A DNA stretch of 50,911 nt, taken from Minisyncoccota bacterium. GTDB taxonomy: Bacteria; Patescibacteriota; Minisyncoccia; Phycocordibacterales; XYD1-FULL-46-19. Both the position numbers and the translations under genes were made by a program. The stretch lies in NCBI GenBank assembly GCA_041664425.1, contig JBAYKU010000004.1, positions 1 to 50,911 on the forward strand, written 5' to 3'. Positions 2,728 to 23,339 of the stretch are shown here, piece after piece; position 1 is the stretch's first letter, and each line of letters opens with the position of its first letter. The notes below the pieces were generated by a model. The model made no database searches, was not told where the DNA came from, and saw nothing but the letters and a program-made list of their open reading frames with translations.

Positions 2728-3621
2728 ATGAACGAAAAAGAACAAAAAGAAACTGAGGTTAAAAATGGCATAGAAATTACTGTTAAAAAAGATATTGAAG
2801 CTGATCTGGCTTTAATTGGCAAGTGGTTTGCAGATTCTGATTCTCCTCATTTTAAAGAAAGAATTCTTTATTTTTATAAAACTTTGGGCAAAAAACTAGA
2901 GGATTTTACTGATGAACCAGAAAAAGTTGTCGAAGATTATTTTAGGGAGATTTATGCGTCAAAAGAAAAGGAAATAGACGAAATTGTCGAAGAAAGCAAA
3001 AGAATTTTAGAAGAAGAATCCCCTGCGAGTCTTGCTGTTTTAGCGGACCTAATGGATTACGATCCTGAAAAGGGTCAAAAATTCATCGCTATTCCTACCC
3101 TGCTCCCCTATTCTCCTTTTCACGAGCCGGTCTTTAATTTTTCTATTGTTGGCAAACTTTTTCTCGGTAAGAAAAATGAGGTTTTAGATACTGCTATTCA
3201 TGAAATTTCCCATTTTCTACTCTTTGATATTTTGAAAGATTTAAATATAGATTTGGCGGATAAGCGTAGTTTAGAACATATGTTCAAAGAAGCTTTGACT
3301 GGGATGCTTTTGTCGGAACCTGAGTTAGAAAATCTCTTAAATAGAAAAAATTATCTCGGTAATCCAGAAATCCAAAATTTATTTATAAAAGACGGAGATG
3401 AAAAAGAGGTAATCCTGCGTGAATATTTACGATCAGAATTTAGAAACCATAAGGCTCGCGGTTTATCCTTTTCTGATTTTATTAAGGCGATGATGGAAAA
3501 ATTCTTACCCAAAGCCTCAGAATTTTATCAAAAGAAAACTTTTTGGGACAAAAATGAACAAGAACTAAAAGCTGGCAATTCAGAACTTTTGGAAATTTAT
3601 AGTGAGCCAATAAAGATTTAA
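2728..3621 (+). CDS. hypothetical protein with an HExxH motif (putative zinc-dependent hydrolase), paralog of 3618..4298
   Basis: Contains AIHEISHFLLFD. The HExxHFxxFD block is shared with the neighbouring ORF. Lies in an AT-rich block. Confidence 0.5.
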   Translation: MNEKEQKETEVKNGIEITVKKDIEADLALIGKWFADSDSPHFKERILYFYKTLGKKLEDFTDEPEKVVEDYFREIYASKEKEIDEIVEESKRILEEESPASLAVLADLMDYDPEKGQKFIAIPTLLPYSPFHEPVFNFSIVGKLFLGKKNEVLDTAIHEISHFLLFDILKDLNIDLADKRSLEHMFKEALTGMLLSEPELENLLNRKNYLGNPEIQNLFIKDGDEKEVILREYLRSEFRNHKARGLSFSDFIKAMMEKFLPKASEFYQKKTFWDKNEQELKAGNSELLEIYSEPIKI

Positions 3622-4298
3622 AAATCTTTATTGGCAACATGATTAATCTTAAGGATTTCCATTATAAAATTCTTTAGGTTGTCGTGGTTTTTATCCCACA
3701 CGTTTTGAACTATCTCCAATTTTTCTTTTAATTCTGGATAAAATGGCTGTTCTGGCCTCTGTAGTATTTCTTGAAATTGGGGCAAATTTAAGACAATAAC
3801 ATTGAAAATCTCAGACAACTCCCAAAGAGGGCCACTATTTTTGCTTAAACTCTTAGTTTCTTCTATAAATTGATCGCAATAATCAAAGAAGGCAAAGTGG
3901 AGACTTTCATGAAAAGCGACTTCTATTTTATCCAATAAGTCTTTTTTATAAAAAATCTGGAAAGTCCCCTTTTCAATATAGCGGGGGTTGCAATTAAAAA
4001 TCGATAAATAGCCAAGATATTCTTTTTTAGAGATATCTAAACCGAAGATGTTTTTCAATTCGGTAAAAAATTTTTGTTGTTTTTGGTTAAGATCGTTGTT
4101 TATTTCCTGGCAATTTTTCTCAAGGAGGTTTTGGTTAGTTAGATAAAAATTGTCGATATATTCTCGATAATTGTCCGCATTTATTTCTGGATGATTTTTT
4201 CTTATTTTTTCACCAAAATTAACCCCGCCGATCTTAAAATCTTTAAAATCGCCATATACTTCGTAATCTAATTCCTTGTTTAATTTGATGGAAATCAT
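3618..4298 (-). CDS. hypothetical protein with an HExxH motif (putative zinc-dependent hydrolase), paralog of 2728..3621
   Basis: Contains AFHESLHFAFFD. It is convergent with the previous ORF, and the two 3' ends overlap by 4 nt. Confidence 0.5.
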   Translation of the reverse strand: MISIKLNKELDYEVYGDFKDFKIGGVNFGEKIRKNHPEINADNYREYIDNFYLTNQNLLEKNCQEINNDLNQKQQKFFTELKNIFGLDISKKEYLGYLSIFNCNPRYIEKGTFQIFYKKDLLDKIEVAFHESLHFAFFDYCDQFIEETKSLSKNSGPLWELSEIFNVIVLNLPQFQEILQRPEQPFYPELKEKLEIVQNVWDKNHDNLKNFIMEILKINHVANKDF

Positions 4299-4331: not shown

Positions 4332-4973
4332 TCAAACCTCAAAAACCAAATCACGGTCTTTCTGCGGTTTTTGTTCTTTGACGTATCGGCGATAAGCCTC
4401 TTTGTAGAATTTGACCCAGTTATCGGGATGGGTTTCTGGCAAATAATCCTTACCCCACTTTTTCTTTTCTCTAGCGATTCTCTTTTTGTCAGCTTTGGTA
4501 AAATCAACATTCAAATAAATAGTTTTGTCCCAGAGTTTACTTATTTTATGTTTTGGGTGAAAAAGGAAGATACCATCAATCACTAAAATTTTTTTTGACA
4601 GGTCAAAAGATTTTTGCGGACCAAAATCATTTTTATTATAATCATAAGTCTTTAACCTTATCGTCCCCTTGCTCTTTGTTTTGAATTCTTTTATCAATTT
4701 TTCTACATCATTATAGCGATACCAATCGAATTCAAAAACCCTAGATTTATCCTCGGCTTTTCCAATCGACATCTTCCGTTCTTTCCAGTGCTTAATAAAA
4801 TCATCCAAATGTACAATCAATACTTCTGGATTTTGCTTGGCAATAAAATCTGCCACAGTTGTTTTACCTGATCCAGCATAACCGTCAATGGCTATTACCA
4901 GTTTTTTCCGGTTTTTAAGCCAATTGGCTGTCTCAGTATTTATTTTTTTAGCAAATTTTTCTGATTTAAGCAT
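4332..4973 (-). CDS. P-loop kinase of the uridine kinase / PRK-like family
   Basis: Walker A motif IAIDGYAGSGKTTVA followed by VHLDDF and VIDGIF strands, typical of Udk-like kinases. Substrate unknown. Confidence 0.6.
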   Translation of the reverse strand: MLKSEKFAKKINTETANWLKNRKKLVIAIDGYAGSGKTTVADFIAKQNPEVLIVHLDDFIKHWKERKMSIGKAEDKSRVFEFDWYRYNDVEKLIKEFKTKSKGTIRLKTYDYNKNDFGPQKSFDLSKKILVIDGIFLFHPKHKISKLWDKTIYLNVDFTKADKKRIAREKKKWGKDYLPETHPDNWVKFYKEAYRRYVKEQKPQKDRDLVFEV

Positions 4974-4974
4974 A

Positions 4975-5103
4975 CTACCCTTTCTTCTCCTCCATTTCTA
5001 CAATAAACTGCGAGCCGAGGCCTTTGCCGGCGGATTCGGCCCAGATTTTGCCACCGTGGGCTTCGACGATTTGTTTGGCGACGTAGAGACCGAGGCCGGT
5101 ACA
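4975..5103 (-). pseudogene. orphan 3' fragment (about 42 codons plus stop) of a histidine kinase, near-identical to the 3' end of 9336..10994
   Basis: 4972..5102 aligns base for base with 9333..9463 with about 8 mismatches. It encodes ...GLGLYVAKQIVEAHGGKIWAESAGKGLGSQFIVEMEEKKG*. No upstream part of the gene is present. Confidence 0.8.
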
Positions 5104-5104
5104 G

Positions 5105-6817
5105 TCATTGTTTGCAAAAGATATTATACCAGACATCGAGGCCTATTATACTAAATAAAATCACAGAATGATCGTTAACCCCAGTTAAATGTTCATCAAT
5201 TAATTTTTTGACAACTTCCCAATCAAAGTATTCTAACACCAGCTTACTCTCTTTTAGTCTGGAAAGATATGGTAATAAAACGCAATCATCCTTAATCCAT
5301 TCGGAAATCGGTAAGCCAAAACCACATTTTTTTCGCAAGACAAAATCCGAAGGGAAATATTTTAAGGCGATTTCTTTTATAGGAGTTTTTTCGCCTAAAT
5401 CACCAATCTTTGTGTCTAAATTATATCCTGCTTCTATAACCGATTCGTAGAGAAAAGGTACCCTGTTTTCAATATTTGCTGCCATTCCAGCCTTGTCTTG
5501 CCTGAGAAGCACATGTGGTAAATAGGTGTTCATGTCGTAAAAACTTAATCTATATTCCCTGCTTAATTCTGCGGTTTTTTGAACAAATTGTTTTCTTTCA
5601 GATAATGACCCTCTGGGCATTTTTAGAATCTTAGAAATCATAACTGGATCAGAAAAAGCATTGGATAGAAGAAGATCATCATCATTATTGATATCTTTTT
5701 GAACATATCTTTTGTATCCAAGAAATATCTCGTCCGCACCCTCTCCTGTTAGTAATACTTTTACATATTTTCTGGCAAATTTTGCGAGAAGATACATTGG
5801 CACAGTATTTGGATGGACAATCGGTCCATCCAGATGATAAGTTATTTTTTCAAAATTATCCACGAAGTCTTTTTTTGTAAAAATAATCTTGTGGTGAATT
5901 GTGCCAAGCTCCTTTGCTACAAAGTCCGAATATTTAAATTCATTCCATTCGCTGTCATTCAGGCCTATCGAAAATGAATGTAAGGCAATTGGAGAATTCT
6001 TTTGCGCTATATAGCTAACCACGCTTGAATCTATACCTCCGCTTAGTTGAATACCGACAGGAGCGTCGCTCATTAGATGACTTTTAACACTCTCAGTTAG
6101 GATATTTTCTATATTTTGTTTTTTTGAACCAACCTTTTCCAGCTCGAAATATTTATTTTTTATATATGTATTAGATTTCAATGAGTAGTCGAGGTATTCC
6201 CCTTGCTGAATTTTAAATATGTTTTTAAATAAAGTTTTTTCATCTGAAATGTGTCTGAACACCATGTGTTCAAAAAGTTTTTCTTCTTCGAGTCGGAATT
6301 GAAAATCTGGTAGGGCACTAAAAGATTTTATCTCTGACGCCCAGGCAAAATACTCAGGGGTGTCCAAAAAGTAAAGAGGCTTAATGGCCATTTTATCTAA
6401 AGCTAAGACCAGTGACTGCTTTTTTATGTCGAGAAAGCTGAATGCGTACATTCCTTTGATCATTTTGAGTACTTCTTCTATTTGGCAGATCTGCAGTATC
6501 TCAAAAAGGGTTGAAGTATCGGAAGAAGACACAAGATCTTTCCCTGCAAGATACTTCTTCCTTGGCACGTTATGGTTATAAATTTCTCCGTTATAAGAAA
6601 GGATAAAATTATCGTTTACAAATGGCTGGTCTGCGTTTTTGGATGTATCAACAATCGACAGTCTGGTATGCCCTATTGTGATATTTTTAATAGAGATAAC
6701 TCCTGTGGCGTCGCCACCACGATGTTGGATAAGATCAAGCATCCCTCCGACAAAAGCCTCTTTTTTTTCTTTACCAAATTTATTTTTTTTATCAATAAAA
6801 CCAACAATGCCACACAT
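5105..6817 (-). CDS. asparagine synthetase B-type glutamine amidotransferase (Ntn Cys2 plus PP-loop synthetase domain)
   Basis: Starts MCGIVGF, placing the catalytic Cys right after Met. Has the PP-loop SGGIDSS. Length is 570 aa. Confidence 0.85.
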   Translation of the reverse strand: MCGIVGFIDKKNKFGKEKKEAFVGGMLDLIQHRGGDATGVISIKNITIGHTRLSIVDTSKNADQPFVNDNFILSYNGEIYNHNVPRKKYLAGKDLVSSSDTSTLFEILQICQIEEVLKMIKGMYAFSFLDIKKQSLVLALDKMAIKPLYFLDTPEYFAWASEIKSFSALPDFQFRLEEEKLFEHMVFRHISDEKTLFKNIFKIQQGEYLDYSLKSNTYIKNKYFELEKVGSKKQNIENILTESVKSHLMSDAPVGIQLSGGIDSSVVSYIAQKNSPIALHSFSIGLNDSEWNEFKYSDFVAKELGTIHHKIIFTKKDFVDNFEKITYHLDGPIVHPNTVPMYLLAKFARKYVKVLLTGEGADEIFLGYKRYVQKDINNDDDLLLSNAFSDPVMISKILKMPRGSLSERKQFVQKTAELSREYRLSFYDMNTYLPHVLLRQDKAGMAANIENRVPFLYESVIEAGYNLDTKIGDLGEKTPIKEIALKYFPSDFVLRKKCGFGLPISEWIKDDCVLLPYLSRLKESKLVLEYFDWEVVKKLIDEHLTGVNDHSVILFSIIGLDVWYNIFCKQ

Positions 6818-6825
6818 AATATTTA

Positions 6826-8385
6826 TTATTGATGTCTCTTTATATAAGCCGCGACAGAACCGGCAATTTCTCTCTCAAGATCTGGTATCTCATTGATTTT
6901 ATCCCAATTACCGCTTCTTAGCTGGTAGTAAAATTTTGATTTCTCTAAAGTGTATTGACCAAAAGACAAGAATTGGAATTCGAACAAAAAGAAAGAGCTA
7001 TCTTTTACGCCAATGTCCAACGCCATATATGGAGCATCAAAATTGTCAAAAACCCTTTTGGTGTAATCTAAAAGGCCAGGAGGCAGCTCTATATCACTTT
7101 TAAACTTCATACTGCCACTAGCCCTAAAATCATTAGAACGGTTAGCTCGGTATAGTACATAGTACTTATTGTTATAAATAACAACTCGATAGTCACCATT
7201 TAATCCTTCAATGTAAGGTTGTAGAATAAATTTTTGGCGATAGTTAGAAATTAATAACGGTTTTTTGCCTGTCTTAATCCACTCAATAAAATACTGAAGA
7301 TTTTTTAAGGAAAAAGTTTTTGAGGCAATCTTAGCAATCTTTATTTTTTCCCTTAGATTTTTAAGCAAAAATACTCCTCGACTTTTTGAAGTGCTACCAG
7401 TTTTAAGAACGAAGTCTTCTTTTTTGACGGCTTCCATATCCTTTAAGTAATCCTCAAACGTGCCGTAACGTTTGGCTTGGATATTTTTTATTTCCGGCAA
7501 GTCCTGAAGATCACGAGCAATCTCCATAAAATGCTTGTTGTGGTGAGCTTTAAACTGGAAGAGACTGGGAATTAGTTTTGCTCCCTGAAAAAATAAACCC
7601 AAAACCAAATCATCAATATAACTCCGATAAAACAATCCAGGATCTTCCGATGACTGATAAAGCACCCATTGCTCTTGATAATTTTGAGTACGAAAATCAA
7701 TTTCTGAAAAAGGCCTGACAACCAACTCAAAACCAAGCTTCTCAAAATAATCTTTGAGTCGATTCAAATCAACAGCCGCTCCTCTCTGTTTTGTAGAGGA
7801 GTAGAATTGACCACGGTAGTCGGTAAAAAGAACTATTTTATTCATTTTATTTTTTGTCTTTAATACTTCTTTCAAAAAAAGATTGTCTCGCAGTATATTA
7901 AAACCTGTATTATAAAAAGTTACTTCACCCTTTTTTAATTGCTCGACTTCTTTTTCTAGGATGGAGATTGCTTCGTCTAACGGCACCCAGATAACGTGCA
8001 AGCCATTCTTTTTTTCCTCTTCGGTTAGATCCAGCTCTCCTTTTTTGCCAATGATTCTGGCTGTATAGCAATGATTAATACAATGTGTTTTATCTCTGTC
8101 GCGAAAATCTTCAATAATTCCAACTATATCAAGAAGGTCAACTTGGCAACCGACTTCTTCTAAGCACTCTCTTTTTACACCATTTTCGATTGACTCATTT
8201 TCATCAATTCCTCCACCAGGCAGCAGGTAGAAAGAGTTAACTTTGTTGCCAACCAAAGCCACCTTACCTTCATTATCAAAAACGATAGCCTTTCCAGTGA
8301 GACGATTTCCAAAAATAACGTTTTTCTCGCTCATCTCTTTGCCGGGAAATACGTCCTTTTCCTTAAAAATAGCTAGTGGGTTCAT
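6826..8385 (-). CDS. fusion protein: N-terminal Nudix hydrolase plus C-terminal ATP-grasp-like ligase domain
   Basis: Complete Nudix box GGIDENESIENGVKRECLEEVGC (GX5EX7REUXEEXGU). The C-terminal half has an ATP-grasp-like core (FVLKTGSTSKSRGV, ILQPYIEG, GDYRVVIYNNKYYVLYRANRSNDFRASGS). The gap to asnB is 8 nt. Confidence 0.65.
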   Translation of the reverse strand: MNPLAIFKEKDVFPGKEMSEKNVIFGNRLTGKAIVFDNEGKVALVGNKVNSFYLLPGGGIDENESIENGVKRECLEEVGCQVDLLDIVGIIEDFRDRDKTHCINHCYTARIIGKKGELDLTEEEKKNGLHVIWVPLDEAISILEKEVEQLKKGEVTFYNTGFNILRDNLFLKEVLKTKNKMNKIVLFTDYRGQFYSSTKQRGAAVDLNRLKDYFEKLGFELVVRPFSEIDFRTQNYQEQWVLYQSSEDPGLFYRSYIDDLVLGLFFQGAKLIPSLFQFKAHHNKHFMEIARDLQDLPEIKNIQAKRYGTFEDYLKDMEAVKKEDFVLKTGSTSKSRGVFLLKNLREKIKIAKIASKTFSLKNLQYFIEWIKTGKKPLLISNYRQKFILQPYIEGLNGDYRVVIYNNKYYVLYRANRSNDFRASGSMKFKSDIELPPGLLDYTKRVFDNFDAPYMALDIGVKDSSFFLFEFQFLSFGQYTLEKSKFYYQLRSGNWDKINEIPDLEREIAGSVAAYIKRHQ

Positions 8386-8418
8386 TTTAGCTGATATAGT
8401 TTAAATTACGACAAATAA

Positions 8419-8449
8419 TTGACTTTTTGTAAAACAATTGTATTATAAT
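8419..8449 (+). promoter_or_regulatory. possible promoter TTGACT (8419..8424) with TATTAT/TATAAT (8441..8449) upstream of the histidine phosphatase gene
   Basis: Read directly from the sequence. The spacer is 16 or 19 nt depending on which -10 is used. A GAGGAGG SD precedes the ATG at 8494. Confidence 0.35.
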
Positions 8450-8493
8450 ACAGGATCCATTCTTTTTCAACCCACAACCGAGGAGGTGTTCCT

Positions 8494-9177
8494 ATGGACA
8501 CAAAACCAAGAAGACTGTTCGTCATGAGGCACGCCGAATCTCTTGAGGACATCGACAAGACCGCCTACGAACGCATTGCTGATGAGGATATGCCTCTAAG
8601 TACGTATGGTCGGGAGCAGGCTGCGGAATTTGGTTCAAGGTTTGTCTCGAGTTTTGGCCCCTGCCAATCTCTAAGGCTCATCTTGTCACCCAGTAAGAGG
8701 GTGCTTGAGACAGCCGAGATTTTGGTCTCAAGGCTACCTGCAAGTATTAAGTGGTCACTGGCAACGGAAAGCCTCATTACCAAGCAAAACTGGGGAAATG
8801 TGACTATCCACAATCGGTCCGAGATCGAAAAGGAACGATACCGGATAGGAGTACTTCGCTACCAATTCCCAGGAGGAGAAAGTGGCGAGGAAATGCTCTT
8901 TCGGTTTGACCTCTTTGCGAAGAGATTATCGAAGGAGATGGCAGATCTCTCGACAGATGAGGCAGTACTCATAATCTCTCATGGTTTCGAGATGCGAGTT
9001 ACGCTGAAATCGCTACTCGGTTGGACCGAAGACTACTTTGAATCTCTGGCTCACCCCCAGCACTGCGAGATCAAGAGATTAGCCTTTGATCGAGGTTTGT
9101 TTGTACTTCTCGATGAGATGGTCAAGTATGACCATTCGAGCAATCCAGACTTTATTCGGAGACAATCAGCACAGTGA
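8494..9177 (+). CDS. histidine phosphatase superfamily protein (phosphoglycerate mutase-like branch)
   Basis: Contains RLFVMRHAES (an RHG-type catalytic motif) and a second His in IISHGFEMR. Confidence 0.75.
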   Translation: MDTKPRRLFVMRHAESLEDIDKTAYERIADEDMPLSTYGREQAAEFGSRFVSSFGPCQSLRLILSPSKRVLETAEILVSRLPASIKWSLATESLITKQNWGNVTIHNRSEIEKERYRIGVLRYQFPGGESGEEMLFRFDLFAKRLSKEMADLSTDEAVLIISHGFEMRVTLKSLLGWTEDYFESLAHPQHCEIKRLAFDRGLFVLLDEMVKYDHSSNPDFIRRQSAQ

Positions 9178-9202
9178 TCAGTGGTCCGACAAAAACCTAG
9201 AC

Positions 9203-9237
9203 AAACGACCAATCCTACTTAGTAGGATTGGTCGTTT
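9203..9237. terminator. perfect 16-bp hairpin (AAACGACCAATCCTAC tta GTAGGATTGGTCGTTT) between convergent genes
   Basis: Inverted repeat read directly. It lies between the stop of 8494..9177 (+) and the stop of 9336..10994 (-). The flanking U-tracts are weak. Confidence 0.6.
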
Positions 9238-9335
9238 CAAATTTACAAAATAAAAATCACCAACCAAAAGAATAGTCTTGCTTTTAATCATCAAAGTAAA
9301 ACATTTTTTCTCTCCTATATTTATAAATTTCTATA

Positions 9336-10994
9336 CTACCCCTTCTTCTCCTCCATTTCTACAATAAACTGCGAGCCCTTCCCCTTGCCGGCGGATTCGG
9401 CCCAGATTTTACCACCGTGGGCTTCGACGATTTGTTTGGCGACATAGAGACCGAGGCCGGTACCGGTGATATTGATGGCGCCGGCGCCGGTGGCGCGAAC
9501 GAATTTTTCAAATAATTTAGGAATAGTGGCTTGATCCATACCGACACCAGTATCGGTGGAAGTAAAACGAATCAGATTCTTGCCACCCTCCTGTCGACGA
9601 GCGACAGCTACAGCAATACTACCCTTTTCAGTATATTTGATAGCGTTGTCAATGACATTGAGAAAGACTTGGTTGAGTTTTCCGGCATCGGCAAAAATAT
9701 TGTACGGCCCCTCGGCACCGGTGAAAGTCATCGTCAGACCCCGGCGCATAACATTAGGCTTGAGCTCGTTGACGACCGATTCTACCATATGGCCCATATC
9801 AATAGTCGTCATTTCGTATTTCATCTTACCGAGCTCGATGCGAGTGATGTTGAGGAAGTCCTCGATCACCCCGACGAGCTTCTGACTGGATTCAAAGACC
9901 ACCTGTACGGCCTCACGCGACTTACCAGTGATTTTACCAAACGAACCCTCGAGTAGCATTGAAGAATAGCCCTTGATAGCGGTCAGCGGGCTCCGGAGCT
10001 GGTGGGAAGCAATCGAAACGAACTCCGTCTTCTGCTTGTCGAGCTCTTTGAGCTTCTCATTGGCCACTTCCAGCTCAGTGTTTGATCTTTCCAAATCAAC
10101 AGCCAATTTCTCGATTTTTTCGCGTTGAGAGACTTCTTTCATTACAGATTTTATTAGTAAGAGACCAAATCCTAATATGGTGGCAAAAATTATACCCCTT
10201 AAGATGAGAAGGTAAAAATCTTTAGTAAATAAAACTTCAAAAAAAGTAATTATTGATAAAAAAAATACTAAAATCGAAGTGGATAAAACTTTAACATTTA
10301 AAACGCCTCTTGAAAAAGCATAGGAAGTCATGATTATTAATGGAAAAGTAAACAAGGCACCAAAAGGAATAAGCTTTGAATTATCAAAAAAAGCAGGGAA
10401 GAGAAAGTTAAAGGTAATTATAAAAGAAAAAGTTGCAATTGTTCCAAATAAAATTAGTGAGTATGGTTGGCGATCTTCTGGTTTAGCTTGCCATGTTTTT
10501 TTAATCATTATAACAATCCCAGAAATGACAAAACCTATACTTACTAATCCAAAAAGTGGAATAAGTGGACCGTTGGCAATCTTCGATATTCTTCCACCTG
10601 AATATGTTTCAGCAATATGATTAAAAACGTAAGGTGTCAACGTGGCTAAGGAAGTAAATATGGTTATCAAGTATAAAAGACTTTGTTTAAAAATTTTAAG
10701 ATCACTCTTTCCTAATGGAAAAAGATAAAATAATCTAAAAATAAAATAAGCTTGCCAAACAGCTAAAAACATTGTTAGTCGTAGAAATAAGAGAGCTAAA
10801 TCTTGATCGAGTATTTTGTAGCCAAAATAATTAAAAACTCCCCATAGACCAGTTACTGTAGCTAAAAGCAAAAAAATTAAATTTGTTTTATTTTTTGAAT
10901 CACTAAAGTAAGTAGTGAAGCCCAAAACAAAAGTTGCTGCGATTACTGTGCCAACAGTGAGTAAATCAATATTAGTTAAAATTGAAGAGTCCAT
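9336..10994 (-). CDS. sensor histidine kinase with a polytopic N-terminal membrane sensor domain; no adjacent response regulator
   Basis: Has the H-box ASHQLRSPLT, N-box NVIDNAIKYT, G1 DTGVGM and G2 GTGLGLY. The N-terminal ~280 aa contain multiple hydrophobic segments. Confidence 0.88.
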   Translation of the reverse strand: MDSSILTNIDLLTVGTVIAATFVLGFTTYFSDSKNKTNLIFLLLATVTGLWGVFNYFGYKILDQDLALLFLRLTMFLAVWQAYFIFRLFYLFPLGKSDLKIFKQSLLYLITIFTSLATLTPYVFNHIAETYSGGRISKIANGPLIPLFGLVSIGFVISGIVIMIKKTWQAKPEDRQPYSLILFGTIATFSFIITFNFLFPAFFDNSKLIPFGALFTFPLIIMTSYAFSRGVLNVKVLSTSILVFFLSIITFFEVLFTKDFYLLILRGIIFATILGFGLLLIKSVMKEVSQREKIEKLAVDLERSNTELEVANEKLKELDKQKTEFVSIASHQLRSPLTAIKGYSSMLLEGSFGKITGKSREAVQVVFESSQKLVGVIEDFLNITRIELGKMKYEMTTIDMGHMVESVVNELKPNVMRRGLTMTFTGAEGPYNIFADAGKLNQVFLNVIDNAIKYTEKGSIAVAVARRQEGGKNLIRFTSTDTGVGMDQATIPKLFEKFVRATGAGAINITGTGLGLYVAKQIVEAHGGKIWAESAGKGKGSQFIVEMEEKKG

Positions 10995-11006: not shown

Positions 11007-12080
11007 TTATAGCCAATCTATCTGCGGAGGTAAACGGTAGCAATGCTCGGCTGGCTCTCCATCATAGCCAAGACGAAAAGAAATTAAAAAATACTCCTTA
11101 TTTTTATCAATTTTTAAAATGTCAGCGATGTCGTTGTATGATTTTTCTATTAAAGTTATTTGTTTCTCATTAAACGGCTGAGAATCATTTTTTCTTAATT
11201 TAAAATGAAAAAAACCAATGCCAGTCAATAATTGAGTGCTTAATCCGTTCTGAGCTGCTGTTAGCCACACTCTTTGCATTACTCGCCCAGTATTAACGAT
11301 ATCGACAGGTTGATCTGAAGGAATAATTATTGTTCCAATCATTGCCGAATGATTAAATATTTTTTCATTGTCTTTAGCTACTAAGTCAGAGGCATGGATA
11401 GTTTTATTAAAAAAATTCATTATAGGCCAAAAGCGAAGAAGTTTAAAAACTAGAGTTTTTGGAAATTTAAGTTCCAATGTTTTCATCCCCATACCTATTC
11501 TTTTTTGCTTCTGCTCTTCCTCTGTCCAGGTTAGGTGATGAAACAAAAAATTATGAATCTCTTTTGTTTCTAGAGCTAATTTTTCATTGTAGCTTAGTGG
11601 TTTTGATAACTTTTTAATTGTTTCATTGTCTTCTTCCAAGATTAATCTCCCATATCCAACTTTGGAAATGCAGTCCATCAGTGATGTCTTTATTTTTTCA
11701 GGAATTTCTTTTTTAAAATATGGTTTTCTGTTAGTACATCTTTTTTCAATCGTTTCAAATGATATATCTTCTTCGTTTTTGATATTTTCGTCTTTTGTCA
11801 AATCCACTCGAGCGGTTAATTCGTTATCATTTCCATTTGGAAACAAAAGTACTGTTGCCCCGTAACCTAAATTTTTAGATGCAATCACTATATTCTCTAT
11901 AACAGCGCCATGGGCAGTATTAATAGAAGCGTTATTACTATTGTAAACTGACGTATCTCGCTCAGGAAAAGAATAAAGAAGAATTGAGTTATTTTTGACC
12001 TTAAACCTCCATGGTTGGCTATTGTCTCCAGATGGGGCTAGCGTCCCGTAGTAAATTATTTTCTCAATATCTTCTTTCAT
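11007..12080 (-). CDS. tandem-domain nitroreductase-family (FMN-dependent oxidoreductase-like) protein
   Basis: Contains APSGDNSQPWRF, a typical nitroreductase N-terminal motif. At 357 aa it is about twice single-domain size. It lies 12 nt upstream of the kinase gene. Confidence 0.6.
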   Translation of the reverse strand: MKEDIEKIIYYGTLAPSGDNSQPWRFKVKNNSILLYSFPERDTSVYNSNNASINTAHGAVIENIVIASKNLGYGATVLLFPNGNDNELTARVDLTKDENIKNEEDISFETIEKRCTNRKPYFKKEIPEKIKTSLMDCISKVGYGRLILEEDNETIKKLSKPLSYNEKLALETKEIHNFLFHHLTWTEEEQKQKRIGMGMKTLELKFPKTLVFKLLRFWPIMNFFNKTIHASDLVAKDNEKIFNHSAMIGTIIIPSDQPVDIVNTGRVMQRVWLTAAQNGLSTQLLTGIGFFHFKLRKNDSQPFNEKQITLIEKSYNDIADILKIDKNKEYFLISFRLGYDGEPAEHCYRLPPQIDWL

Positions 12081-16743: not shown

Positions 16744-17767
16744 CTATTTGATTATATCTACTGGATTAAAGTACGTCCAGAGGATAGAACAACCTCCTGC
16801 GCAAATGTCATATTGTGAACAATGCTGACATTTCTCGCTTGGGTAACAAGCTAGCTTGTCGTAAATTTCAACTACAGACTTTCTGGTAAAAAAGTTGGTG
16901 AACTCTTCTGGTGTTAAAAAATCTTTTCCATACTTCCCTATCGGATAAGGAAAAAGATGATTACAAACCAGGAGAGAACCATCTGTATCAAAAACAACAC
17001 CAGATCTTTTTGATAAATGGCAGCCTGTTTGTATTTGTTTACGATCAATCATATCCCTGATGAAGTGTTTGTTCCACAAACACAGAGGATAGCTACATCG
17101 TAAATAAATTTTTCCTTGTAGTATTTTTTCTGCTTGGAATAGCTGATTTGAGATGTTTTTGATCATCTCACCCAGTTCTTCCCAAGTGTAATCAGATGAC
17201 CATTGACCCTTGGAAAAAATTGGAGTGTAGAGACTGATATTCAGACTTGCTACTCCTAGCGTAGTGGCTGTTGTCGCCAATTGTTTTAGGTCACAGTCAT
17301 TTGGATGGCAGACAAAGGCTAGTCCAGAACCCTTAATAGATAAGGCTTTCCTTAGTCCAGATAAATAGCGGTGCCAGTCAATATTACATCCTACATCTTC
17401 GAATTTTTCTTCACTCGAAGCTTTAATAGAAACTCCAACGCTACTGTTAGACTGTTTTTTTATATGTGTCGAGAAACTCGTCAGATAGAAAACGCAGACC
17501 ATTTGTAACAATTGTGCTACTGACTCTGTTGTTGATGTAACTATTAAAATCAGATAGATGTGGCCAAATAGTTGGCTCTCCTCCAAAAATTGCTAATTGT
17601 TTGGCACCTGAATCAATAATTAAATCGGCGATAGCACAGGCCAGAGGCAAATCCATTTCATCTGGTTTAGTTAAACAAGCGTCTTTGGAATAGCACCACC
17701 GACAGCCAAGGTTGCAAGCCCTGTTTACAGTCAAACACACTATTTTGGGTTTAACAGGAGGAAGCAT
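16744..17767 (-). pseudogene. radical SAM / SPASM-domain peptide maturase, split into two overlapping ORFs (17447..17767 and 16744..17586) by a frameshift at an A7 run (17455..17461)
   Basis: The N-terminal ORF has CNLGCRWC (CX3CX2C). The C-terminal ORF has the SPASM pattern C...DGSLLVC (GX4C) and CQHCSQYDICAGGC (CX2CX5CX3C). Removing one A from the run joins ...LDTYKK to QSNSS..., giving ~340 aa. Confidence 0.8.
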
Positions 17768-18403: not shown

Positions 18404-18802
18404 TTAGAAAAACTTTTTTATTAATTCATCCATACAGTTCAGAACAAATTTGGCATCTTTTATTGCATCGATAGCTACGTCTTTATTGTATCCTTCCTCC
18501 TGGTGAAGGGCTGGACCTCTTTTTCTTGATAAATCTATAGAAATTTCTTCAATTTTTTCTGCATCAAATCCAATATCAAAACCTTTCATTTTCAAAACCC
18601 TCATCAATAGTGGTGCCTGATCGTGGCTTTTGGGATAATGTATTCCAAGTAATGCTAGAACGGCGGTAAGTTCTAATTCCACCGCTTCTTGTGATCTTCT
18701 TATGCTCATATTCCAAATTTCTCTTTCAAAAGAGCCTTCGGCGTGTTGAATACATTCTATTGATGCCCTCATTAACAATTGTGATCTTTGCAAATTATTC
18801 AT
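18404..18802 (-). CDS. HEPN-domain protein (putative toxin partner of the upstream nucleotidyltransferase)
   Basis: A 132-aa all-helical protein placed 6 nt downstream of an MNT-type gene, which is the classical MNT-HEPN arrangement. The domain call rests on context plus general resemblance. Confidence 0.5.
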   Translation of the reverse strand: MNNLQRSQLLMRASIECIQHAEGSFEREIWNMSIRRSQEAVELELTAVLALLGIHYPKSHDQAPLLMRVLKMKGFDIGFDAEKIEEISIDLSRKRGPALHQEEGYNKDVAIDAIKDAKFVLNCMDELIKKFF

Positions 18803-18808
18803 ATGATT

Positions 18809-19696
18809 TTAAAAATTTTTTGGTAACACCCAACACCACTTGCCGCTTGGTAAAGTTGATTTTTTACTGTTGGTATTTTTTATTTTGTCCTTTATATCTT
18901 CTAAAAATTTTTTACCAATATTTTGATTATCATCAAAAATTATTCCGTGATCTGATATGTCTAAAAATAACCATAGGAAGCTGTTTAAATGTTTACTACT
19001 CAAAAAAACAGGGTATATCTCTGGGTAGATACTTTTTTTTGAAAGATCTAAGTAGGTTTTTTGTCGTCGAGAATTTTTTATTATTTGGATAAATTTATTG
19101 TTGATATTTTTACGACTTATTTTTTCTTCATCAAAGATAATTAGCAAATCAATATCACTTGATCCCCTTGCTTCTCCGCGAGCAACTGAACCAAACAATA
19201 TAATAGATAAGACCTTGCCCTCGCATTCCTTGTTTACTTTTTGTTTGAATTCCTCTAAAAAATTATTATAGTCATCTACCCCCAAGGCCACAGGTTCGTT
19301 CTCCGATTGGAGAGATGCTAAAAAATTATTTATCAAATTTATATCGATTAGGTCCTTATCTCTTCTTACTAATTTTTTATAATAAAGAACTTCTTCTAAT
19401 TTTACGAATGGTAAACCTTTAATCTTTTCTGCTTCGTTTATCATCTGATTGATATCTTTATTTGTGGGCGCAAACCACCAATTTGAAATTTTAATTGATC
19501 CAATTCTAATAAAACCCTCACTATCCAGTGGATTTGTCTTTAAAAGTTCTATCCAAAGTCTGTCAGTTACAATTACGTCAATATTTGGAGCTTCTCTAAT
19601 ACCTCGTATTGCCATTACCGCACTACCAAATATTGCGAATTCGTTTTGAGGAAAATTCTGTTGCCTTATATCTTTAATCAAATCATTAATTTCCAT
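18809..19696 (-). CDS. minimal nucleotidyltransferase (MNT) family protein with two NTase-like segments
   Basis: Has the canonical GSxxRG...DxD signature ILFGSVARGEARGSSDIDLLIIF. A second, degenerate copy lies near the N-terminus: FAIFGSAVMAIRGIREAPNIDVIV. Confidence 0.7.
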   Translation of the reverse strand: MEINDLIKDIRQQNFPQNEFAIFGSAVMAIRGIREAPNIDVIVTDRLWIELLKTNPLDSEGFIRIGSIKISNWWFAPTNKDINQMINEAEKIKGLPFVKLEEVLYYKKLVRRDKDLIDINLINNFLASLQSENEPVALGVDDYNNFLEEFKQKVNKECEGKVLSIILFGSVARGEARGSSDIDLLIIFDEEKISRKNINNKFIQIIKNSRRQKTYLDLSKKSIYPEIYPVFLSSKHLNSFLWLFLDISDHGIIFDDNQNIGKKFLEDIKDKIKNTNSKKSTLPSGKWCWVLPKNF

Positions 19697-22198: not shown

Positions 22199-23260
22199 TT
22201 AAAACTTCGGCAAATTGATGTACTCCCGGACGAAGAAAGTTTTATTATCCCCCACAGCAATCTGTTTAATGGCATAAGTCGCCACTACTCCACCTAAAAT
22301 CGCGGCGCTACCGAGCTGGGACCATGACACAAGTTCCTTTTTCATCACTCGGCCAACTGAGGCAATCATTTTGGGGTCAACTTGGTGCATACCACCGACT
22401 ATGTCATTGATAATGATGTCGCCGGCTAATTCTTTGCCCATGGGACCAGATAATTTTTGTTGCCAATAAGCTTCATCTTTTTCAAAAATTTTGTCATAAC
22501 CGAGGTCATATCTTTCGATATGGAGGACGACACCATCGCCGTTGTCGGTAATCATGACTACTGGCACTTTGTATTTGAGAGCGAGCTTGCGAGTTTCAAT
22601 CTTCATCGTCATCTCATCAATCTCCTCGATAATACAGTCTATTTCCTTGTTAGCCAGTAATTTTTCTAAATTCTCAACGTTAATTCCCTGATCGAAAGTG
22701 GTGACTTCGGCGTAGGGGTTGTCTTCGTAGATATGTCTAGCGGCAATGGTGGTTTTATTTAGTCCGATTTGGTGGGTACCGGCGAGAATGCGATTCAAAT
22801 TGGTCGTATCGAGTTCATCAAAATCGGCAATGGCGATTTTGTTGGAGATGCCAGCTTGAGTTAAAACAAAAGCGATATTACTGCCGACACTCATACCAAA
22901 AACGCCGATCTTAAAATTCCGGAGAATTTCTTGCTCGGCGCTAGTAATCAAATCTTGATTACGATTGGTTTTCAAAGTCAAAAAGTCGTTGATCTGGGCA
23001 CATTTGACGATAGTTTGATTCCAGGGATAGAAAATATAATTAAAATGGTCTTTTTTGGTCTCGCAATATTTTTTAAAATCCTCAGTCTGGTAGGCAGTTT
23101 CTTTGTCAGTGCCAATATATTGTTTGTTATCAATAAAGAAAAGCTCTTTTAATTGACGCTCGAAAGCATCGATGTATTGAAAATTGATCAGCTTCTCTTT
23201 GAGCGAGGCTAGCTCGGCTTCATCCTTGAAAATAGTCGGTTTGACTTCTTGATTTATCAT
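22199..23260 (-). CDS. ThiF/MoeB/E1-like adenylyltransferase with a ~110-aa N-terminal extension (start set at the first ATG; the track uses an upstream TTG at 23296)
   Basis: Has the nucleotide-binding loop IGVFGMSVGSNIA and IADFDELDTTNLNRI (the D.D....NLNR signature of the E1 superfamily). The gap to the PaaK-like gene is 9 nt. Confidence 0.7.
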   Translation of the reverse strand: MINQEVKPTIFKDEAELASLKEKLINFQYIDAFERQLKELFFIDNKQYIGTDKETAYQTEDFKKYCETKKDHFNYIFYPWNQTIVKCAQINDFLTLKTNRNQDLITSAEQEILRNFKIGVFGMSVGSNIAFVLTQAGISNKIAIADFDELDTTNLNRILAGTHQIGLNKTTIAARHIYEDNPYAEVTTFDQGINVENLEKLLANKEIDCIIEEIDEMTMKIETRKLALKYKVPVVMITDNGDGVVLHIERYDLGYDKIFEKDEAYWQQKLSGPMGKELAGDIIINDIVGGMHQVDPKMIASVGRVMKKELVSWSQLGSAAILGGVVATYAIKQIAVGDNKTFFVREYINLPKF

Positions 23261-23339
23261 TGCTATTATTGTAACATAATAATTAATAATTGGCAAGCCG
23301 TAGCGCCATTTTGAGATCTTGTTCCCCTAGCGATATGTC

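Follow-up and report, generated by a model that had tools for sequence, protein, structure and literature searches.

The 50,911-nucleotide stretch of DNA analysed here, from a Minisyncoccota bacterium of the Patescibacteriota (contig JBAYKU010000004.1, positions 1 to 50,911; hereafter the window), carries a three-gene module behind a histidine kinase gene, and this module is bracketed by two direct copies of the kinase's own 3' end. It is probable, from comparison of the two copies with each other and with those at related loci, that incoming DNA supplied a new end to the kinase gene and displaced the resident one, and that the repeat pair is the scar of this acquisition. The scar apparently generalises to a recurrent, integrase-free capture site behind a single kinase family. 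It is suggested that homologous recombination on one side was combined with an illegitimate join on the other, and this reading as a whole, capture scar and integrase-free mechanism together, is given a probability of about 0.5.

A repeat search identified one family of 131-nt direct repeats in the window, with copies at 4972-5102 and 9333-9463, offset by 4361 nt. The original prediction had estimated these copies to be about 94% identical, and a precise ungapped comparison agrees: 123 of 131 positions are identical, there are no gaps and the longest exact run common to both is 35 nt. When the left copy was compared with the rest of the window by blastn, the match had E = 3e-54 and the next best E = 0.15. 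The right copy is, as had been proposed, the true 3' end of a kinase gene: the open reading frame (ORF) at 9336-10994 on the reverse strand encodes a seven-transmembrane (7TM)-HisKA-HATPase_c histidine kinase of 552 aa that matches the Pfam families HisKA_7TM, HisKA and HATPase_c, and the copy spans its last 41 codons, its stop codon (9336-9338) and a further 3 nt, beginning one codon ahead of the G2-box motif TGLGL. The left copy, on the same strand, was correctly recognised as an orphan that retains the same frame and the same stop codon (4975-4977). Its two ends fit closely between neighbouring genes, with the stop codon of asnB (5105-5107) 2 nt from the inner end of the repeat, as the original prediction of an abutting stop implied, and the orphan stop 1 nt from the ATG (4971-4973) of a uridine-kinase-like (udk-like) gene. 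Inside the orphan, the purine-rich run GGAGGAGAAGAAAGGG ends 4 nt before this ATG and resembles a Shine-Dalgarno sequence. A 53-codon ORF (4975-5136, reverse strand) encloses the orphan; its only Pfam match is to the last 37 positions of HATPase_c and its ATG falls within the 3' end of asnB in a different frame. In other lineages, several orphans are preceded at a distance of 0-2 codons by an in-frame stop and are therefore untranslated, for which reason this ORF is probably not a gene and a translated small protein is an unlikely explanation of the orphan.

The contig derives from groundwater metagenomes, and an assembly artefact was considered and rejected given that the same arrangement was produced by two assemblers (ENA MEGAHIT k141; JGI), that sequencing runs of two different studies four years apart (2018 and 2022) contain 98% of the words of the structure, that unitigs of the flank, the module and the kinase have equal depth, and that exact identity between the copies does not exceed 35 nt. 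Candidate deletion or excision joints in the contigs of the runs proved to be the kinases of other organisms, with 9-11 mismatches, and not deletion forms.

Comparison with about 120 related loci (given L-numbers; the kinases compared have P-numbers) and a search for scars in 80 species-representative genomes scanned with the kinase alignment revealed the same anatomy elsewhere. Orphan copies of the kinases' own last 45-155 nt lie behind inserted genes in nine cassettes from six lineages of Patescibacteria, and in two of these lineages (L013-15 and L048) the orphans form tandem arrays. All are in direct orientation. They end with the stop codon or no more than about 12 nt past it, and their inner boundaries range in position from 45 to about 155 nt ahead of it. 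In L010/L011 an orphan of 122 nt (84% identical) directly follows asnB; in L013-15 there are two, one after an ATP-grasp gene and the other after a second cassette of a tetratricopeptide repeat (TPR) protein and a RimK-like ATP-grasp; L048 has two cassettes and two orphans; L071 has an orphan of 85 nt (93%) behind a PemK toxin cargo and L085 one of 65 nt (85%) behind an MvdD-type ATP-grasp set. The cargos, of 0.5-4.2 kb, are of different kinds: the module of the window, TPR with MvdD/RimK-type ATP-grasp, a sulfotransferase/kinase/NUDIX/methyltransferase set, the PemK toxin, and an ABC transporter with a radical-SAM/PqqD-type gene. Wherever the module of the window lies directly behind an orthologous kinase, an orphan kinase tail follows the module, every time. 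In a control of 1,637 ORFs of the same loci, comparable orphans were found at only two of about 1,500 non-kinase genes, and in an unbiased GTDB set at 4 of 87 kinases against 2 of 1,158 other ORFs (p = 3e-4). No N-terminal orphans of the tryptophanyl-tRNA synthetase (TrpRS), which would be the mirror pattern on the other flank, were found, and no longer, intermediate kinase fragment was present at any locus examined.

Some of these loci have features of their own. One of the two non-kinase orphans repeats 24 aa of a DnaJ C-terminus and lies 480 nt downstream from its gene (L057:71-1209), and the other is a 74-aa N-terminus copy upstream of an unknown 214-aa ORF (L100:335-3254). L071 has a second, divergently oriented 7TM kinase (L071:3072-8086); an orphan of its own (51 aa, 88%) comes after an ABC transporter and a radical-SAM/PqqD-type gene, 3.2 kb downstream of it, and the two kinases have an autoinducer-synthase/FeeM-like gene between them. 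The L010 kinase (7238-9199) is split into three consecutive ORFs, possibly by a frameshift, by pseudogene formation or by sequencing error.

The differences between in-gene and orphan copies indicate how the two arose. In the window the eight differing bases amount to five third-position synonymous changes and one codon that is fully replaced (K to L), without any insertion or deletion. The ratio of synonymous to non-synonymous codon differences is 5:1 in the window and, among the younger pairs elsewhere, 8:0 in L048, 4:1 in L071 and 7:2 in L085; across these four, 25 of 32 changed bases are at third positions (p = 3e-7), and in a wider set of in-gene and orphan pairs 66 of 102 are (p = 1e-10). 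Given that the orphans are untranslated where a stop lies directly upstream, the synonymous bias reflects a history in functional genes and not selection on the orphan, and both ends must therefore have diverged inside working genes of different genomes. Which of the two is the newcomer is suggested by L013, whose orphans are closer to the current kinase end of L010 than to L013's own kinase end; this points to the in-gene end as the incoming one.

The transmitter half of the kinase (9336 to about 10140) appears to be a place where recombination occurs. The transmitter of the window kinase is 75-92% identical at the nucleotide level to the kinases of L003, L122 and L123, whereas the sensors are unalignable, and over its last 131 nt the gene is 79-87% identical to its counterparts in L003, L004 and L123. 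Kinases P0036 and P0026 have nearly identical transmitters behind unrelated 7TM sensors. Between L122:8001-9704 and L123:8001-9668, blocks of 92-100% and 73-88% identity alternate within the transmitter, a block of 99.3% lies downstream of the kinase, and L123 has, relative to L122, an extra 1,782 nt that starts right after the kinase stop and left no repeat. These alignments indicate that the transmitter is a recombination substrate for domain-level exchange between co-occurring genomes; they concern the gene family and not the window event itself. In the window kinase, similarity to relatives continues unchanged across the inner boundary of the repeat. The G+C content at third codon positions (GC3) is 0.20 in the sensor half (about 10140-10994), which cannot be aligned with relatives, and about 0.65 in the transmitter half, and the shift falls near codon 290.

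It is suggested that DNA of a related genome, carrying that genome's kinase tail followed by the phosphatase, Nudix::ATP-grasp and AsnB genes, entered the resident cell, presumably by transformation and presumably in this direction. On one side, a normal homologous crossover would have taken place within the nucleotide-conserved transmitter half; on the other side, where there is no homology, the incoming end would have been attached by an illegitimate join at a point 131 nt ahead of the resident stop. The kinase would thereby remain intact with a new tail, and the resident tail would be left as an orphan behind the cargo. Short orphans may have been kept for the expression signals of the next gene, and selection would keep only those events that spare both the kinase and these signals. 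A finished cassette, flanked on either side by kinase sequence, could then be passed on by an ordinary homologous double crossover. An event of this kind would belong to homology-facilitated illegitimate recombination, for which an integrase is unnecessary and which has been described in transformable Acinetobacter baylyi and Streptococcus pneumoniae; to our knowledge, it has not been demonstrated in Patescibacteria. The resemblance lies in one-sided homology, an illegitimate join on the other side, the lack of a dedicated recombinase and idiosyncratic junctions. However, in experiments such events are rare insertion-deletions and not a recurrent hotspot with arrays of displaced ends, and duplication of the anchor end is not their usual outcome. 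The recombinase-independent route as described is considered to fall slightly short of even odds.

Several observations weigh against this explanation. First, all orphans are at most 155 nt long although about 800 nt of the transmitter are conserved, and a simple model of illegitimate joining does not predict this limit without added assumptions. Second, L010 carries the same cargo as the window, and the repeat starts of the two fall within 1-2 nt of one and the same codon; this likeness may reflect one old event, with common descent of the cassette, or a preferred site. Third, duplication of a 3' end up to the stop codon, with tandem accretion, is a classical signature of integrase-driven elements as well. 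Fourth, neither a precise empty site for the window nor a close donor for the DNA beyond the end of asnB was found in the collections searched; relatives without the module after the kinase exist, and the lack of a precise empty site, donor or microhomology is attributable to the nearest kinase orthologue being only 62% identical. Finally, no other genome examined has udk after the kinase, and in L115 (1518-6283) the nearest known relative of the udk-like gene comes straight after asnB, contiguous with the phosphatase and Nudix fusion genes; a kinase fragment is absent there, as is any nearby histidine kinase. The orphan may therefore not mark the native junction of kinase and udk, and the orphan/udk junction may differ from the ancestral kinase junction. 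L115 emerged, together with L125-L129, from an empty-site search by way of udk and asnB relatives, and these loci complicate the history rather than settle it. P-loop kinases also lie beside Nudix genes in L116-L119, L125 and L048.

Among the alternatives, the one that survives best, although it is thought unlikely, is site-specific integration of an integrase-less element with an att site that imitates the 3' end of the kinase and a tyrosine or serine recombinase that is encoded elsewhere in the genome or on a helper. Islands that enter the 3' end of a protein or tRNA gene and bring a replacement for it are known, and the anatomy is that of the prophage e14 in icd of E. coli, where the repeats likewise reproduce the 3' end of the target through the stop codon, the gene is intact with the incoming end and the resident end is displaced (icdC, 165 nt); the icd and icdC copies also differ mainly at synonymous sites. 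Moreover, the tandem arrays of L013 and L048 resemble the accretion known from cis-mobilizable elements (CIMEs), such as those at the 3' end of fda in Streptococcus thermophilus, in which integrase-less DNA between att-type repeats, with internal copies in tandem arrays, is derived from and mobilised by integrative and conjugative elements (ICEs). Restriction to one gene family would also be expected of a site-specific enzyme. However, e14 has an integrase and an excisionase by its junction and CIMEs have an integrase-bearing ICE partner at the same site, whereas no such partner was found at about 90 kinase loci and the kinase cassettes have neither a recognisable recombinase nor phage genes between their repeats and differ in repeat length, from 45 to 155 nt.

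The search for a recombinase covered all nine cargos, 10 kb around the kinase in 113 loci (at most about 20 kb each) and the 51-kb window. Pfam searches of the cargos and of the candidates in the window found no tyrosine or serine recombinase, and phmmer with E. coli XerC, IntE and PinE against 2,695 ORFs found nothing below E = 1, though a very divergent enzyme could escape; the original prediction that no integrase lies between the repeats is thereby upheld. No integrase family was among the 25 that were listed, with two or more matching ORFs each, from 150 ORFs downstream of the kinases. When eight junction pairs were aligned by eye, the sequences adjoining the repeats were unlike and had no core or arm motif in common. 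A scan of IMG/VR found only full-length kinases and no viral contig with an orphan copy, and phage and plasmid collections had no match to the repeat or the module. Furthermore, the insertion at the same point that distinguishes L123 from L122 left no repeat, which weighs against a site-specific enzyme. Of the originally proposed footprint of an integration or duplication, acquisition at the kinase 3' end with a replacement end and a displaced orphan is retained, but not a classical integrative island: with no recombinase, no shared junction sequence, no phage or plasmid relative and a module that appears to be an old operon, a reading of the repeats as attL and attR of a typical island is not supported.

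Two further systems that leave short repeated segments were compared. Integron arrays also pile up small, promoter-poor cassettes at one fixed platform, but neither IntI nor attI or attC sites were found by junction alignment and phmmer, there is no shared motif, and the separators at the kinase locus are copies of a gene end. Diversity-generating retroelements (DGRs), which are common in these bacteria, likewise have an orphan of roughly 100-150 nt of a gene 3' end nearby in direct orientation. A DGR was rejected given that Pfam identified no reverse transcriptase, that the differences are not adenine-specific and that they are mainly synonymous and not diversifying.

A RecA-dependent insertion of Campbell type, in which a circle with the cargo and a short kinase 3' piece enters by a single, reversible recombination, would give the exact topology without an integrase. 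Repeats of 45-155 nt exceed the minimum length usually needed for homologous pairing, and the identity of 79-87% across species at the kinase end and the unbroken similarity across the inner repeat boundary would both be consistent with it. Nevertheless, such an insertion is improbable for three reasons: a prior illegitimate event would be needed to form the circle, circular double-stranded DNA is not a usual product of DNA uptake, and the structures are stable across samples and years.

The alternative named in the original prediction, that the orphan is the remnant of a second, downstream kinase paralogue reduced to its last 131 nt, does not fit and is very improbable. Kinases are indeed known on either side of the module: in L009 a methyltransferase and then a complete 7TM kinase orthologue come after it, and L007 and L008 have another 7TM-GAF kinase and a receiver upstream of the phosphatase. 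However, the arrangement of L009 is a different one, all nine fragments are the exact extreme 3' end through the stop codon and each resembles the kinase of its own locus, and the fragment in the window is 94% identical without an indel, with five of six changed codons synonymous. It is implausible that decay would have ended independently at this one piece in six lineages, twice in tandem, and no fragment of intermediate length survives at any locus. Equally remote is an intragenomic event, in which the fragment was copied from the cell's own kinase, by templated repair or local duplication, or is an old duplicate held similar by gene conversion, perhaps for the sake of signals that serve the next gene: the adjacency of asnB and udk without a fragment in L115, the Shine-Dalgarno-like run that the orphan provides just before the udk-like ATG, and the cargo and repeat start shared by the window and L010 would suit it, but a drifted self-copy should differ at all codon positions and not mostly at synonymous third positions, gene conversion would erase differences and not spare the synonymous ones, and the orphans of L013 are nearer to the kinase end of another lineage than to their own.

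Patescibacteria, also known as the candidate phyla radiation (CPR), have tiny genomes with few recognisable mobile elements, and the route by which they gain accessory genes is poorly understood. If the explanation by homologous crossover and illegitimate joining is right, an integrase-free insertion point behind a conserved kinase would be a concrete and searchable mechanism of gene flow in a large uncultured radiation, with displaced gene tails as a built-in record of events, and it would explain the near-identical transmitters behind unrelated sensors. More broadly, and only tentatively, the transmitter half may serve as a shared homology arm that makes the interval between kinase and TrpRS an integrase-free capture platform in Patescibacteria, with each capture delivering a fresh kinase tail and shifting the previous one downstream, arrays of orphan tails recording successive captures, and cassettes passing between species through homologous recombination alone; frequent recombination of this sort might have left its trace in the unusually GC-rich third positions of the transmitter and of the other flank. 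For annotation, an orphan HATPase_c tail behind this kinase marks a cassette border. The cargos, which comprise nucleotide-modifying enzymes, ATP-grasp and radical-SAM sets of the type found with ribosomally synthesised and post-translationally modified peptides (RiPPs), and toxins, represent accessory biology that is otherwise hard to locate. The top-ranked matches of a literature search contained no description of such kinase-end capture scars.

The kinase family is widespread in Patescibacteria and Paceibacteria. The kinase of the window is at its native locus, given that the nitroreductase-like gene (Acg/Rv3131-type; 11007-12080, reverse strand) upstream of it is a conserved neighbour, lying directly upstream of the kinase in at least 14 species. 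Downstream of the kinases the commonest neighbourhood is TrpRS-AspRS-ScpA-ScpB; the interval between kinase and TrpRS differs from genome to genome while its flanks are conserved, with the nitroreductase and kinase genes upstream and TrpRS-AspRS-ScpA-ScpB downstream. The repeat-bracketed DNA lies in this variable hotspot interval. In the window, the conserved far flank of the interval comprises TrpRS (800-1783) and an S24 LexA-like peptidase (1823-2386), both on the reverse strand and with a GC3 of 0.55-0.56. Between the peptidase and the orphan are two genes of unknown function (2728-4298; 297 aa on the forward and 226 aa on the reverse strand) and, directly after the orphan, the udk-like gene for a P-loop kinase of 213 aa (4332-4973, reverse strand). 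At the other end of the repeat-bracketed DNA, the convergent kinase and phosphatase genes are separated by an AT-rich spacer of 155 nt (9178-9332), in which a hairpin at 9201-9238 with a 16-bp stem resembles a bidirectional terminator; the fold of the whole spacer has z = -3.5.

The module itself comprises asnB, which encodes an AsnB-type glutamine-dependent amidotransferase of 570 aa (5105-6817, reverse strand; TIGR01536, 381 bits), a NUDIX::ATP-grasp-like fusion of 519 aa (6826-8385, reverse strand) and a histidine phosphatase of 227 aa (8494-9177, forward strand; His_Phos_1). The three genes had been predicted as such, and the amidotransferase, the NUDIX half and the phosphatase were all recovered; the ATP-grasp label, by comparison, comes only through orthologues, which match RimK (2.5e-6), CPSase_L_D2, TTL and ATP-grasp_4. 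In direct searches the C-terminal half of the window protein itself had no significant family match, PDB sequence searches with the fusion and its hhalign comparison with RimK-type cargo proteins (E 0.03) were marginal, and a single-sequence AlphaFold model of the ATP-grasp half was uninformative (pLDDT 38). PADLOC models identified no defence system in the module, with only a weak NUDIX-domain match (PDC-S07, 2e-6) and weak P-loop matches. Nudix and ATP-grasp form one gene in the window, L007, L115, L125, L126 and L129 and two genes in L008 (10001-11561), L010, L013 and others, and in L031/L032 their order is reversed, with ATP-grasp before Nudix. Divergent promoter-like hexamers lie at 8419-8470, between the phosphatase and the Nudix fusion (11/12 and 10/12 matches).

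The phosphatase is 93-95% identical in amino acid sequence to those of L007/L008 and the Nudix fusion 87-89%, whereas AsnB, for which the expectation is about 75%, reaches only 61-63%; the best relatives of AsnB anywhere are 64-69% identical, and similarity to close relatives breaks near 6782-6826. These identities show that the module of the window is a mosaic in which asnB is the outlier. The set of phosphatase, Nudix (fused to ATP-grasp or not) and AsnB occurs on many contigs in at least a dozen other contexts, and most of these copies do not lie beside this kinase and have no flanking repeats; the distribution indicates an ancient, widespread operon and not a discrete mobile island. In L129 asnB (7522-9337) is split into two overlapping ORFs, possibly through a frameshift, pseudogene formation or sequencing error. 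Phage-type genes, of the kinds terminase large-subunit nuclease domain, T5orf172 and Bro-N, occur near the module or in the variable interval at L007:14532-15662, L008:14382-14984, L129:9577-10413 and L003:8572-9390.

Base composition within the module and its surroundings is uneven. The phosphatase has a GC3 of 0.52 against 0.32-0.33 in its operon partners; its GC3 is 0.54-0.59 in four relatives and 0.39 in L013, and such contrasts occur likewise in most relatives examined, the extreme being 0.82 against 0.26 in L071. That the GC-rich kinase half and the phosphatase are recent foreign arrivals was considered and rejected as a reading of these values, given that distant relatives have the same GC3 contrast; frequent recombination or codon selection may be the cause.

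Elsewhere in the window, a ThiF-family gene lies at 22199-23296, about 11 kb from the kinase, and in L003 and L005 a ThiF-family gene, not compared with that of the window, separates the kinase from the nitroreductase-like gene, so that rearrangement may have affected the upstream side of the kinase locus too. At 16744-17767 a radical-SAM gene is apparently split into two overlapping ORFs, one of 106 aa with a Radical_SAM match and one of 252-280 aa. At 18404-19696 a HEPN protein adjoins a nucleotidyltransferase (NTP_transf_2/Polbeta), in an arrangement like that of HEPN/MNT toxin-antitoxin pairs.

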